Source of the DNA: Candidatus Pampinifervens sinense
GTDB taxonomy: Bacteria > Aquificota > Aquificia > Aquificales > Aquificaceae
Assembly (NCBI GenBank): GCA_037927135.1
Contig: JAXSPP010000006.1
Coordinates: 32,001 to 96,000, forward strand
Reading direction: 5' to 3'
DNA length: 64,000 nucleotides
Of the stretch, positions 24,101 to 27,100 are shown one piece after another. The position numbers are program-made. Positions within the stretch are counted from its first letter, which is position 1, and each line of letters starts with the position of its first letter.

Positions 24101-27100
24101 GTCCGGATATGATCTCATAACCTTTCTCTAATATATCCACTGCAAAGTCTTTATTTATAAGAAGCTCAAGACCGCTTTCACACTCGCTTATCTTCAAATC
24201 CTCCTTTCCTTCAAGCCAATTTTTGCATCTTTCTTCACCGACCTCCCTTATGGTAAGGTATAGGGTGGAGTAGGAAGGGGCAAAAAGGAAGACCTTTGAG
24301 ACCTTATTGGGCATGCATAGCTTGAGGTAATTTAGTATAACATAGGCTCCATGGGAGCTGCCAGAAAGCCAAATTTCTTCAAACTTTTGAGAAAAGCCCT
24401 TTATAAGAACATCCAATACTTCAACGGCTTTTGTAGTGGTGGTAGTGTGATAATCCATATCCATGGCAAAGAAGGAAAATCTGCCTTTCAGAGACCTCTC
24501 TCTCAAAAGGGCTACTTTACTTCCCGATACATTGCTTGCAAAGCCATGGAGGTGTATTAAAATAAGCTGAGGGTTGGAAGTCTCGTAGATGAACATAAGG
24601 GAAATTATATACGACCTAGAGCTTAGAAGAAAGCTATTCCACATATTTGCTCTCATGCTCTGGCTTTTACCCATAGCCTTTTTCCCAAAGCACCTTACCC
24701 TAATCCTCTTTTTGTTTGTACTTAGCGTAAATCTTTTAACAGTTATGGGCTTCTGGAAAGAAAGGCTTCACTTCTACTACAGCCTTATCTATAAACTTGA
24801 GAGGGAAAGGAACTATTTGAGGCCTAGCATTCAGGCCCTTTGGGCCAATTTGGGCATCTTTTTGAGCTTTTTAATCTTTTGGAAGGGAAGCTTCCATGGT
24901 TGGTGTGGTAGTGTTGGCAATAGGGGACGCCTTTTCAGGTTTGATAGGCCTTAGGCTTGGTAAAAGAAAAGTATGGGGGAAGAGTGTGGAAGGTTCTTTG
25001 GCCTTTTTCTTTTCTACCTTTGTGGTGCTTGCACCCTTTATAGGAACTTGGAAGGCCTTCCTTATCTCCTTTATTTCTTCTCTTGTGGAACTTTTTTCTT
25101 CAAGGCTTGATGATAACTTCACCGTACCTTTGACTGCCAGCCTTCTTTATAAGATACTTGTGCTATAATTCTAAGCTAAGGGGAAAGGCCATGGCTTTCC
25201 CAAAATGCCGCCTGCTGGGGAGTTGGGAAAGCCTAAAAAGAAGGGCGGGATACAAATACCCCAGCCCAAGCTGTACCAAAAGGTACAGTTTGGTCAAGAA
25301 GGCTAAAGTATGAACCTTGGAAAGATACTTAGGCTTGAAAGGCTTATGAACAGAGATACCGGAAAGACCATAATAGTGCCTATGGACCATGGAGTTAGCT
25401 CTGGACCTATAGAGGGTATAGAGAACATAAGGAAGGCTGTGGAGGATGTAGCGGAAGGTGGTGCTAATGCGGTGGTCCTTCACAAGGGCATGGTAAGGGC
25501 TGGACATAGGGGAAGGGGAAGGGACATCGGGCTTATAGTGCACCTTTCTGCCTCCACCGACTGGGCTCCCACAAGGAACGATAAGGTGCTCGTTTGCACA
25601 GTAGAAGAGGCTATAAAGCTTGGTGCGGATGGTGTATCCATACATGTGAATATAGGCGCAGATATGGAAAGGGAAATGCTAAGAGACTTTGGGTATGTGG
25701 CAAGGGTATGTGAAGAATGGGGTATGCCTCTGCTTGCCATGGTATACGGTAGGGGGAAGGATATGAACCAGTATGATCCAAAGGTTGTAGCCCATTGTGC
25801 AAGGCTAGGTGCAGAACTAGGGGCGGACATAGTAAAGGTTCCATATACAGGAGATCCAGAGAGCTTTGCAAAGGTTGTAGAAGGCTGTCCCATACCGGTG
25901 GTAATAGCCGGTGGGCCAAAGATGAAAACGGAAAGGGAAGTGCTTGAGATGGTCTATGGAGCCATAAAGGCAGGAGCAAAGGGCCTATCCATAGGAAGGA
26001 ACGTCTTTCAGGCAAGGGATAGGGTAAAAATGGTCAGAGCCTTAAGCCTTATAGTGCATGAGGGCAAAAGTGTGGAAGAAGCGATGAAAATACTTGAATA
26101 AAGGAGGGTTTTATGGGTCTTTTGGAAGGGAAAAGGGCTCTTATAATGGGAGTGGCCAACGAAAGGAGCATAGCCTATGGTATAGCAAAAGCCTTCAAAA
26201 GAGAAGGTGCGGAGCTTGCCTTTACCTACGCCAACGAGAAGCTAAAAAAGAGGGTGGAAGAGATAGCTCAGGAGCTAGGTTCTAACCTTACCTTTGAATG
26301 TGATGTTTCAAAGGACGAACATATAAAGGGACTCTATGATTGGCTCTCTAAGACCTGGGGAAGCCTTGACATAATAGTGCATTCTATCGCTTATGCGCCA
26401 AAGGAGGAGTTCAAAGGTGGTGTTATAGACACATCAAGGGAAGGCTTTAAGATAGCTATGGACATATCCGTCTATTCTCTTATAGCCATTACAAGGGAGC
26501 TCTTGCCCCTTATGGAAGGAAGGGAAGGATCCATAATTACCCTCTCTTACTATGGGGCGGAAAAGGTGGTGCCACACTACAACGTGATGGGTATAGCAAA
26601 GGCAGCCCTGGAGTGTACTGTAAGATATTTGGCCTACGATATAGCAAAGTATGGCCATAGGATAAACGCCATATCCGCTGGACCCATAAAGACTTTGGCA
26701 GCCTACAGCATAACAGGCTTCCACCTTCTTATGGAGCATACCATAAAGGTAAACCCCTTTGGAAGGGCCATAACCATAGATGAGGTGGGAGACACGGCCG
26801 TATTTCTGTGTAGCCCTTGGGCAAGGGCCATAACGGGAGAGGTAATACACGTAGATAATGGCTACCACATAATGGGTGTTTTTGGAAGGGAGGAGGAGAT
26901 AAGGAAGGAGGTTTTTGGAGAAAATAAAGAATGAAAACTTTTGAGCTGTATGGCCTTAAAGAAGAAGAATATAAAAGAATAGTAGAGAGGATTGGAAGGG
27001 AGCCAAACAGCGTAGAACTTGGCATCCTTGGAGCCCTATGGTCAGAGCATTGCTCTTACAAGTCTTCTAAGGTACATCTTAAAAAGTTTCCTACAAAGGC

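Follow-up and report, generated by a model that had tools for sequence, protein, structure and literature searches.

Results

The element in front of the ADH synthase gene

The window, i.e., the whole stretch of 64,000 nucleotides of Candidatus Pampinifervens sinense DNA that was analysed, carries a gene for ADH synthase (hereafter the aldolase gene; TIGR01949, 380.1 bits against a cut-off of 299.45), and directly in front of it lies an RNA element the parts of which are listed in Table 1. The loop of hairpin P1 holds two segments, a and b, which are complementary to the downstream segments a' and b' and form with them two pseudoknot helices, a:a' and b:b'; a linker separates a' from b', and hairpin P3 is followed by the Shine-Dalgarno sequence (SD), with 16 nt between the end of P3 and the ATG at 25310.

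Table 1. Features of the element and its surroundings (positions in the window, except for the second copy)
Feature	Position	Strand	Basis
Putative promoter -10-like hexamer TATAAT	25164..25169	+	by eye; TG before it at 25161-25162
AAGGGG, likely original SD of the aldolase gene, now 5' of the insert	25178..25183	+	by analogy (see text)
Alternative hairpin GGGAAAG/CTTTCCC, rival pairing to P1	25181..25201	+	inverted-repeat search
Relic open frame, 40 codons, start ATG 25191	25191..25313	+	in frame with ORF 25158..25313
Hairpin P1: 25193-25201 GGCTTTCCC with 25225-25233 GGGAAAGCC	25193..25233	+	read directly
P1 loop segment a, CCGCC	25208-25212	+	read directly
P1 loop segment b, GCTGGGG	25214-25220	+	read directly
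a', GGCGG, 3' strand of pseudoknot helix a:a'	25244-25248	+	read directly
Conserved linker GATACAAATA between a' and b'	25249-25258	+	read directly
b', CCCCAGC, 3' strand of pseudoknot helix b:b'	25259-25265	+	read directly
Hairpin P3: 25266-25277 with 25282-25293, 12 bp, AAAA loop, abuts b'	25266..25293	+	read directly
Present SD GAAGG, 7 nt before the ATG	25298..25302	+	read directly
ADH (2-amino-3,7-dideoxy-D-threo-hept-6-ulosonate) synthase, 263 aa	25310..26101	+	ORF and TIGR01949
Second copy, upstream of htpX	G000:C2:95577-95682	-	model R1

The survey's finding had presented the element as real, structured and double-pseudoknotted, and our data agree: all four helices can be read directly from the sequence, the folding z-score of the window copy is -4.10 with none of 200 shuffles as good, and the helices covary (see below). 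Moreover, P1, P3 and b:b' were recovered independently by an inverted-repeat search of the window, and P1 and P3 are still part of the minimum free energy (MFE) structure at 70 and 85°C. The GGGAAAG/CTTTCCC hairpin appears in the MFE structure at 37°C and is absent at 70 or 85°C; it is private to this genome, G050 and G067 being different in sequence there. Another hairpin, GGGCGGG..CCCAGCCC, set against the pseudoknots, is also present in the MFE structure and was rejected because it is lost in variants with CTCCAGC or CCTCAGC, and because b:b' covaries.

The TATAAAT-like linker was considered as a DNA promoter and dismissed, given the absence of a usably spaced -35 and the covariation at the RNA level. 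The TATAAT hexamer further upstream is not listed by the promoter scan because no -35 matched. P3 is not followed by a U-tract, and the only terminator-like site found by the terminator scan of the window is on the opposite strand. A tRNA-like structure or an RNase P substrate is an idea without support, and P3 loops are variable. Comparison of positions 24950-25650 with four hot-spring metatranscriptome runs from two studies left the element uncovered and is no test of expression: four short contigs of one run aligned to coding DNA beside it, and not a single read came from the two raw-read runs.

The relic open frame spans the whole window copy, and its TGA overlaps the aldolase start codon (ATGA). 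At least one open frame runs through the element in 70 of 77 instances; frames, starts and stops differ, however, and none is open through the C2 copy; a conserved leader peptide (uORF) was therefore rejected as a general feature. We keep the frame in the window copy as a relic of a tnpB-like frame and a local feature.

Distribution and absence from Rfam

Model R1 of this analysis, built from pattern-selected sequences with only b:b' entered as pairs, gave two matches in the present genome (G000), the window copy with 66.0 bits and the C2 copy with 74.3 bits, in keeping with the two copies reported by the survey. The earlier count of 65 out of 90 family genomes was reproduced with this independently built model (again 65/90), as were 35 copies in one genome (G072). 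Wide recurrence in Aquificota also holds for a plain a'-linker-b' pattern with up to three mismatches, which is present in 94 of 178 phylum genomes as compared to 2 for the reversed pattern. The element is not confined to this phylum, since exact-pattern matches were also found in Thermodesulfobacterium (two isolates) and in one MAG of the Thermodesulfobacteriaceae.

As the survey had stated, no Rfam 15 family accounts for the element; at E≤10 the window and C2 copies have no match save chance-level rows far under the gathering scores, the best ones being 13 and 12.9 bits against 44 and 38 for window positions 24000-26500, and 18.6 bits against 60, on the other strand, for the C2 copy. Two experimental RNomics papers reportedly have the Aquifex aeolicus type strain as their subject, and the element is present in two MAG records labelled A. 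aeolicus. No prior account of the element was found in the literature, nor any earlier description of tnpB elements that target ribosome binding sites (RBSs). Specifically, there is no multi-copy pseudoknot element in the main-text section of Lechner 2014 that includes Table 3 and nothing similar in the sections examined of Brewer 2021, where Aquificae are among the phyla analysed, and the main text of a 50-genome follow-up paper has none of six Aquificota names; the supplementary tables of Lechner 2014 and Brewer 2021, or Willkomm 2005 itself, might list instances.

Full-length copies are IS607-type insertion sequences

Among 125 distinct instances, approximately 104, including both copies of this genome, are remnants without a gene (hereafter solos). 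In 15 of the 125, the end of a tnpB-like frame on the same strand, or of its tail, is found under 520 nt upstream, and 20 have CYATGG and a conserved structured stretch of ~300 nt 5' of P1. Full-length copies are ~1.6-2.2 kb long and comprise a tnpB-like gene and, in some, a serine-recombinase tnpA. The ORF L164:2955-4565 scores 65.6 bits against TIGR01766 (cut-off 32) and 80 bits against TIGR01765 (cut-off 47); its 71.8 bits against guided_TnpB are under the cut-off of 100, and its match to the Cas12f1-like TNB domain is limited to the first 28 of 60 positions. The tnpB-like gene of full-length elements is without a Zn finger. Just upstream of tnpB, L167:450-1088 is an IS607 transposase gene (NF033518, 222.8 bits, cut-off 110), and the other four full-length copies examined are tnpB-only. 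The tnpB-like ORF continues through the element, with UAA directly after P3, and five copies are ~78% alike up to exactly ..TAACCAGG, beyond which the flanks are unrelated. The element constitutes the last ~110 nt of the full-length copies and is the module at the right end of an insertion sequence (IS) with tnpA and tnpB that belongs to the IS607 family.

The insertion site lies exactly between the SD (..GGAGG/, where the slash marks the junction) and the start codon of host genes. Full-length ISs have the same orientation as the host gene and no target duplication; their left flanks end with GGAGG (three copies) or GAAGG (one copy), and the junctions read ..GGAGG/IS..CCAGG/flank. At 11 orthologous empty sites in related genomes, ..AGGAGG/TGCGCTGTG.. 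or ..AGGGGG/TGTGTTATG.., the element is absent. According to the part of PMC6188088 consulted, IS607 has a GG target, GG at its termini and no duplication; the full-length elements likewise have GG both at the target and at their own terminus, without duplication, and share with IS607 a serine-recombinase tnpA upstream of tnpB (L167). In E. coli, the same part of that paper reports no target preference of IS607 past (G)GG, whereas here every readable junction lies inside an RBS and is co-oriented with the gene, which could reflect targeting or survivorship; also unlike what is described there, the right end carries a replacement SD.

Compared with related genomes, solos are insertions as well: the aldolase leader has one in three genomes, and 16 others have just an RBS there. 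The AAGGGG upstream of the window copy would be the old SD and would end at the GG insertion point, judging from the left junctions that full-length copies show (..GGAGG/ and ..GAAGG/) and from empty sites that read ..AGGAGG/TGCGCTGTG.

An omega-RNA-like scaffold and its loss from solos

By its position, the highly structured RNA of the last ~400 nt of the full-length element, which overlaps the 3' tail of the tnpB-like ORF, constitutes an omega-RNA (reRNA)-like scaffold. The final ~110 nt of this long RNA extend from P1 through both pseudoknot helices and P3 to the tail UAACCAGG, which brings the stop codon of the ORF as well as an SD that replaces the old one, 5-9 nt ahead of the host ATG. 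In the long form, pairing is possible between the tail CCAGG(U) and (A)CCUGG in the P0 loop; it is invariant in long forms and so without covariation support.

As with the TnpB omega-RNA of ISDra2, in so far as it is covered by the part of PMC10097598 consulted, the long-form RNA is encoded where a tnpB-family ORF has its 3' end and overlaps it, contains many stems and pseudoknots, and stops at the right end of the transposon with flank DNA next. According to the same part, TnpB and Cas12 guide RNAs share a conserved pseudoknot just 5' of the guide, formed with a distal loop further upstream. P3 of the long forms, placed before a short tail able to pair with a distal loop, resembles stem 4 and the pseudoknot of ISDra2. 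The two differ in that there is no sequence or Rfam relationship, in length (~400 nt against 116 nt resolved in the consulted account of ISDra2) and in the extra P1/double-pseudoknot domain; a guide role, a TAM and protein binding of the long form are putative. IS607 TnpB proteins are guided by RAGATH-18-derived RNAs, an orphan motif that proved to be a guide RNA (PMC11061315, part consulted); unlike RAGATH-18, the long forms at 12 loci gave no Rfam match at E≤0.01, RAGATH-18 included.

The copies of this genome differ from an omega-RNA in not being beside any tnpB: no tnpB-family gene ends at either copy, the nearest that are tnpB-like lie on different contigs (C9, C5), and the two tnpB-like genes of this genome are without an R1 match (best 6.7 bits). 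They also lack the tail and loop strands, neither a P0 loop nor a CCAGG 3' of P3 being present in the window copy. Since solos are without the P0 loop CCUGG and the tail CCAGG, they are most likely no longer guide RNAs. We regard it as very unlikely that solos are guide-RNA modules, transcribed with the RBS and start codon as the guide, that load a TnpB or TldR-like protein encoded elsewhere and direct it to DNA. They do correspond to the guide-proximal part of the long RNA, many genomes have several tnpB genes, and TnpB-derived RNA-guided repressors exist. However, besides both strands of the presumed guide-adjacent pseudoknot, solos are short of the ~300 nt scaffold, and the cognate protein can be missing: at E≤1e-5, a homologue of the tnpB-like protein is absent from 26 of the 65 family genomes that carry the element, and G083 (100% complete), which has three solos, gave no guided_TnpB match whatsoever. 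In G072, none of the 35 copies adjoins one of its five tnpB genes.

Solo copies and the genes behind them

In 100 of 111 instances the start codon follows the end of P3 at a distance of 13-19 nt, so the start-codon adjacency in the survey's finding stands; its reading of the element as an independent leader family does not, the element being an IS607 right-end module represented here by solo remnants. Nor are most solos 5' leaders behind a promoter, because 62 of 103 are intercistronic and lie between two same-strand genes (open-frame criterion). The 73 downstream proteins belong to more than 50 unrelated NCBIfam families with housekeeping functions, such as L32, S11, S18, S20, S21, L25, RpoA, EF-Ts and Hfq as well as ACP, GlnA, MetE, GlyA, FtsH and HtpX; the genes of one pathway that are expected behind a riboswitch were not found. 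This is in accordance with the earlier observation that the downstream genes share no pathway, and it is explained by the insertion target of the IS, the GG of the SD, without need for a puzzling regulon.

In addition, a graded series leads from the full element via forms reduced to the RNA and a short fused frame (L014, L091, L115, L139) to solos. The 5' borders of solos vary by locus, and 5' erosion ends at P1 in unrelated loci. Ten solos in G072, which has no cognate full-length element, are near-identical from P1 to b' and have different P3 sequences, a pattern poorly explained by repeated insertion and deletion, and gene conversion or some other way of spreading may act.

A compact, pseudoknotted core in many copies, often between cistrons, might bring to mind a self-cleaving ribozyme or a nuclease-processing signal that splits cistrons or trims the omega-RNA. 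We consider this the most improbable of the explanations dealt with here, as there is no match to an Rfam ribozyme family at E≤10 and the sequence has no pointer to a cleavage site.

Conservation of the fold

Compensatory changes are present in all four helices (P1, a:a', b:b' and P3). RNAalifold picks b:b' unprompted, with double changes in six of its seven pairs, from an alignment the loop half of which was outside the search pattern. Among 76 distinct sequences b:b' is 99.8% paired, and the a:a' pair 16-56 is CG in 64, GC in 11 and broken in 0, which corroborates the covariation of the pseudoknot pairs noted in the survey. The linker is invariant but for one Y/N position in the alignments, and among solos its ten nucleotides, GAUAYAAAUA, are invariant across a genus. 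This exceeds the apparent needs of an insulator or stabiliser and hints at a specific partner or a tertiary contact. The SD is outside every conserved helix.

Selection can be followed at the htpX locus, where a solo is present in 22 of 23 genomes, G051 being empty (AAAGGAGGTAAAAATATG), and where the htpX coding DNA is 78-92% alike. These leaders have their own GGAGG-like SD after P3 and not the IS tail. In a MAFFT alignment of 21 orthologous leaders, 96.5% of the cells are paired compared to 88.1% for shuffles (0/500 reach it) and 26-50% for slid controls; double changes occur in 7/9 P1 pairs and 6/8 basal P3 pairs, with both pseudoknot helices and the linker being invariant. The fold of solos is under selection.

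It has to be considered whether solos are functionless, decaying relics, conserved because of an active-element past, recency or gene conversion. The graded series down to solos, the near-identical cores in G072 and the fact that the aldolase solo is common to only three close relatives would all be expected of such relics. That erosion halts at P1 in unrelated loci and that solos remain in genomes without the gene would not, nor would the htpX solo, co-located in 22/23 genomes with compensatory stem changes around an invariant core, and we find this explanation quite improbable.

A solo could also, whatever its origin, be a sensing cis-regulator that switches translation of the downstream gene, whether as riboswitch, as RNA thermosensor or as operator for a common RNA-binding protein; in essence, this is what the survey's finding implied. 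In preQ1-III and pistol RNAs a 5' hairpin loop pairs with sequence downstream of the hairpin, as it does here; unlike these, the element has no Rfam match, two crossing helices between the loop and the outside, an A-rich 10-nt linker and no common gene context. Although an aptamer-like core with two pseudoknots and highly conserved unpaired nucleotides at a fixed RBS distance suggests regulation, and although a switch between a:SD and a:a' can be drawn on paper from the complementarity of segment a (CCGCCU) to SD-like sequences, neither a terminator nor a conserved alternative structure was found, P3 is without a U-tract and all conserved helices leave the SD free. That the upstream repeat of the window copy competes with P1 at 37°C, not at 70-85°C, would also suit a switch, but this competing hairpin is private to one genome; moreover, the spread over more than 50 unrelated downstream families is explained by the IS target. 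Taken together, we judge a sensing regulator to be unlikely.

Discussion

Our data favour, with a probability of roughly 0.6, that the solo is an IS607 right-end RNA module that has been kept as an exapted, RBS-bearing structured leader, with a molecular role that we infer as follows. The full-length IS inserts at the GG of an SD, ahead of the host start codon, and supplies a replacement SD; it would use the host SD for its own gene. In solos, everything 5' of P1 has been lost, and they would be kept because they are now the translation-initiation region of the gene. The compact fold, predicted to be stable at 70-85°C, would end 13-19 nt before the start codon and lock away its own C-rich, anti-SD-like strands (CCGCCU, CCCCAGCC), such that the new SD is left single-stranded and the cistron gains a structured 5' flank. 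In the window copy, the 40-codon relic frame behind the old SD, with its stop on the aldolase ATG, would probably add translational coupling.

Remnants of mobile elements that enter host transcripts and affect expression are exemplified by Correia, BOX and ERIC elements. Unlike MITE-type elements, the present one has no terminal inverted repeats, the only inverted repeats being P1, P3 and b:b' within it, and its tertiary-type fold, in a fixed register to the start codon, has long been under purifying selection. It is also similar to the IS200 5'UTR-derived sRNA (PMC5435999, part consulted) in being a mobile-element part within host transcripts that would affect expression. The likeness to TldR and other exapted TnpB systems, as covered by the consulted part of PMC10691335, is that parts of a TnpB transposon have been domesticated for host gene control; in TldR-type systems, however, protein and guide RNA are retained and act on DNA, whereas here there is only an RNA piece, in cis in mRNAs.

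A wider reading, which we offer tentatively and hold to be rather doubtful, is a global regulon: an IS607-type transposon of thermophiles would specifically colonise RBSs and in return donate a structured leader and a new SD, its module would have been domesticated more than 100 times and the core of the module would be read by one trans factor. The module would then be a shared, tertiary-folded operator before genes for ribosomal proteins, Hfq, EF-Ts, proteases and central metabolism, and the factor, be it a protein, the 30S subunit or a small molecule, would read the linker and the pseudoknot core. If so, a transposon would have wired a global post-transcriptional regulon.

Coming back to the exapted leader, if it is correct, the insertion sequence lives inside the RBS, borrowing the host SD and giving the host gene a replacement, and the host keeps a piece of a guide-RNA scaffold, not the nuclease. 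A fold of ~100 nt would then be maintained by compensatory evolution across a genus, before housekeeping genes and even without tnpB. The full-length copies, for their part, would provide a large scaffold of the omega-RNA type, so far uncatalogued, for a clade of TnpB proteins without a Zn finger in Aquificota, where TnpB is reported to be especially common (PMC10691335, part consulted). The question of function is made directly testable by reporters with pseudoknot mutants and compensatory mutants. For genome annotation, finally, what appears as a "leader motif" marks old IS insertions.

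The element and its recurrence

Hairpin P1, two pairings between its loop and downstream segments (helix a:a', CCGCC:GGCGG, and helix b:b', GCUGGGG:CCCCAGC), hairpin P3, an SD sequence and an ATG can all be read directly from the window copy (see the table), as the survey had described them. Nor does any Rfam 15 family match this copy or the second and only other one in the genome, which lies upstream of htpX; here too the earlier statement holds. The window region folds better than 200 of 200 shuffles (z = -4.1), a repeat search unaided picks out P1, P3 and the 7-nt complementarity between loop and downstream segment, and P1 and P3 are retained in the predicted MFE structure at 70 and 85°C. 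The 263-aa ORF behind the window copy is ADH synthase (TIGR01949, 380 bits vs. a cut-off of 299). Common to both copies are the P1 loop and the block GGCGGGAUAYAAAUACCCCAGCCCAAGC; their P1 and P3 sequences are wholly unlike.

Features of the window copy and of related loci
Feature	Position	Strand	Description	Basis
Window copy	25193-25293	+	Whole element	read from sequence
P1		+	GGCTTTCCC/GGGAAAGCC	read from sequence
P1 loop		+	CCGCC-U-GCUGGGG	read from sequence
Pseudoknot partners		+	GGCGG, 10-nt linker GAUACAAAUA, CCCCAGC	read from sequence
P3		+	12-bp hairpin directly abutting CCCCAGC	read from sequence
P3-to-start spacer		+	16 nt including GAAGG, then ATG	read from sequence
Rival hairpin	25181-25201		GGGAAAG/CTTTCCC	
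9-nt inverted repeat	25139-25147; 25296-25304		AGCCTTCTT / AAGAAGGCT, perfect	
Upstream ORF	24896-25168	+	90 aa	
Opposite-strand ORF	25163-25645	-	160 aa, presumed spurious	
htpX copy	C2:95577-95682	-	Second copy	
tnpB-like gene L169	C9:3230-4357	-		
tnpB-like gene L170	C5:75260-76384	+		
Long form L164	L164:2955-4570 (genome G024)		~1.6-kb tnpB-only element	

The downstream-half pattern GGCGGGATAYAAATACCCCAGC (up to 3 mismatches) matched in 94 of 178 phylum genomes, and its reversed control in 2. When 30 sequences were chosen by this pattern alone, the loop half being outside it, RNAalifold picked the 7-bp loop/downstream helix, with double changes in 6/7 pairs. A covariance model having this helix as its only pairing finds the element in 65/90 family genomes, with two copies in the genome under study and 35 in G072, a complete genome, and so reproduces the survey's counts with a different model. 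Among 76 distinct matches the 7-bp helix is 99.8% paired, while the second pseudoknot helix, which is outside the model, is never broken; one of its pairs changes from C-G to G-C in 11 sequences, mostly of one G072 lineage. The double changes in b:b' together with this swap in a:a' confirm the covariation reported for the pseudoknots.

The range of the element extends beyond Aquificota: exact matches to the pattern, with P1, pseudoknots and P3 all complete, are present in the isolates Thermodesulfobacterium hveragerdense DSM 12571 and T. thermophilum DSM 1276. Further matches come from a Thermodesulfobacteriaceae MAG and from MAGs labelled Desulfobacterales, Archaeoglobaceae and "Bacterium HR37", labels that may be a product of binning. 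The complete copies outside the phylum are L148 and L160 (the isolates), L149, L126, L152 and L158. Both isolate copies precede a homocitrate/isopropylmalate-synthase-like gene and lack transposon gene and upstream RNA (solos, see below), and L152 (Bacterium HR37) is a long form; the contig with L158 has been binned as Archaeoglobaceae, perhaps in error.

A transposon end in ribosome-binding sites

Beginning near the start of their ORF, five full-length copies show ~78% similarity up to exactly ..TAACCAGG; past that border they are unrelated, and a host gene, different in each, starts 5-9 nt beyond it. The left border, readable in four, is preceded by ..GGAGG in three and by ..GAAGG in one. 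For one insertion the orthologous gene in 11/11 related genomes reads ..AGGAGG|TGCGCTGTG.. or ..AGGGGG|TGTGTTATG.., i.e. a plain SD-spacer-start with nothing in between. These borders and empty sites therefore place the element between SD and start codon; the target is not duplicated, and GG is found both there and at the element's own end. The same three traits have been published for IS607 (PMC6188088). Thus the survey was right about a real structured element; as an independent leader RNA it does not stand, since the shared borders and empty sites show it to be the right end of a mobile (IS607-type) element that lands in ribosome-binding sites.

In 20/125 distinct instances (long forms) the element comes after CYATGG, hairpin P0 and a stretch of ~300 nt that is conserved and visibly structured, and no Rfam family matches these loci. 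The conserved ORF upstream of this stretch scores above the cut-offs of TIGR01766 and TIGR01765 and below that of guided_TnpB; it covers only the first 28/60 positions of the Cas12f1-like TNB (Zn-finger) domain, and in a PDB sequence search its RuvC-I/II region aligns to a Cas12f1. The frame is open through the whole RNA, the element included, and stops at the UAA of a conserved UAACCAGG directly after P3. In L167 a gene for an IS607-family serine transposase lies immediately upstream (NF033518, 222.8 bits vs. a cut-off of 110), giving a version of ~2.2 kb with tnpA; elements of the same kind as L164 are also seen at L165-L168 (L167 included), L002, L013, L061, L101 and L162. The last ~400 nt of the long form are an uncatalogued, highly structured RNA with the tnpB-like ORF open across all of it. 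Four loci (L014, L091, L115 and L139) are RNA-only, with a TATAAT-like box, SD and ATG fused straight to the ~300-nt region and the tnpB body missing; they resemble an intermediate on the way from full element to solo.

The long form shares the layout of TnpB omega-RNA: it overlaps the 3' end of a tnpB-family ORF and extends as far as the end of the transposon. By position it is a putative TnpB omega-RNA of an IS607-family element. In ISDra2 (PMC10097598) a hairpin is followed by the final nucleotides 5' of the guide, and these pair with a distal loop; similarly, the long-form tail CCAGG(U), preceded by P3, is able to pair with the P0 loop (A)CCUGG, a pairing that is invariant and so unproven. 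As for the two copies in the genome under study, they lack two defining features of an omega-RNA, tnpB adjacency and guide-adjacent pseudoknot strands, and are therefore not classed as one; they have no coherent gene set as a riboswitch would, and they fall outside the MITE criteria. A literature search returned no account of the RNA, nor any of tnpB elements residing in an RBS or of leaders made from solo omega-RNA modules (the Lechner 2014 and Brewer 2021 supplements and Willkomm 2005 could list loci). What emerges is a transposon end of omega-RNA type, not catalogued so far, whose later existence as a conserved, structured leader is unusual.

Solo copies and their conservation

About 104 of the 125 instances, both copies in the genome under study among them, lack the ORF as well as the upstream RNA. 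These solos start at P1, and sequence further upstream is unrelated between loci. By an open-frame criterion (a same-strand frame with 80 or more codons whose end is no more than 110 nt away) 62/103 lie between two genes, e.g. rpsM and rpsK, and 29 of the remaining 41 have a nearby -10-like hexamer, as judged by a loose pattern with no control. Relative to relatives, solos are insertions: the aldolase solo occurs in the genome under study and its two closest relatives and is missing in 16 genomes, in which another ORF comes before the gene, with AAGGGAGGTTAAAA|ATG, and the htpX solo is present in 22/23 genomes of the genus, G051 retaining an empty AAAGGAGGTAAAAATATG.

The fold of solos is under purifying selection. 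In 21 orthologous htpX leaders, aligned with MAFFT without fitting to structure and omitting G051 (no element) and G069 (longer P3), 96.5% of cells are paired vs. 88.1% when shuffled (reached by 0/500), a comparison inflated by kinship; firmer measures are the slid partners (26-50%) and the double changes, seen in 7/9 P1 pairs and 6/8 basal P3 pairs. Both pseudoknot helices and the linker are invariant in these leaders, even though identity in the htpX coding DNA is no higher than 78-92%. In the G069 leader (L218) the P3 region is duplicated or extended (..CCAAGCCTTAGGTCATAGGGCTTAAGCCTTAAACATAAGGCTTGG..).

Solos do not need the gene. At E≤1e-5, 26 of the 65 element-positive genomes are without a homologue of the tnpB-like protein, ten of these being at least 99% complete; G083 (100% complete, three copies) has no guided_TnpB match at all, and 0/35 copies in G072 adjoin its five tnpB genes. 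The proteins of L169 and L170, the two tnpB-like genes of the genome under study, are 51-52% identical to that of the element over residues 47-423; these loci carry no trace of the module, their 3' region is different, and at C5 the neighbour gene is convergent.

Surroundings and possible role in expression

At the window copy AAGGGG, likely the old SD, is followed by an ATG (25191), a 40-codon frame through the element and a TGA overlapping the aldolase ATG; this frame is a miniature of the tnpB-like frame. The hairpin that rivals P1 is favoured in the 37°C MFE structure and not at 70 or 85°C; the two closest relatives are without it, so that a deletion in this genome alone must have created it. 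The inverted repeat flanks the element and covers the present SD, and since its 5' arm is upstream of the putative -10 box it would be relevant only in read-through transcripts. The upstream ORF ends inside this putative box, and the opposite-strand ORF spans the whole element.

In 100/111 cases 13-19 nt (mode 15) separate the end of the fold from the start codon, so that P3 comes to lie at the ribosome-binding site's 5' edge, and in solos the fold would be part of the gene's initiation region. The C-rich strands CCGCCU and CCCCAGCC would be complementary to the SD if freed, so that staying paired may itself be selected, and a stable 5' structure may shield the cistron. Downstream genes include those for L32, S11, S18, S20, S21, L25, RpoA, EF-Ts, three Hfq, ACP, MreB, FtsH, HtpX, Lon, GlnA, MetE, GlyA, IlvC/D, Ndk, Trx, PPase, 2-oxoacid:ferredoxin oxidoreductase subunits and others. 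They share no pathway, as the survey had noted, and resemble well-expressed housekeeping genes, both because the insertion target is a strong SD.

Some observations fit less well: the loss of everything up to P1, the invariance of the linker, which suggests that it makes some specific contact, and the GGAGG-like SD that htpX leaders themselves have behind P3. In the G072 genus, the remaining 10 genomes carry no element copy, yet 1-16 tnpB-like homologues. In G072 itself, from which the cognate element is absent, ten of the 35 copies on contig C1 (e.g. L078 and L082-L090) are near-identical from P1 to b' with a different P3 each, and all ten have the change from C-G to G-C in the 5-bp pseudoknot helix.
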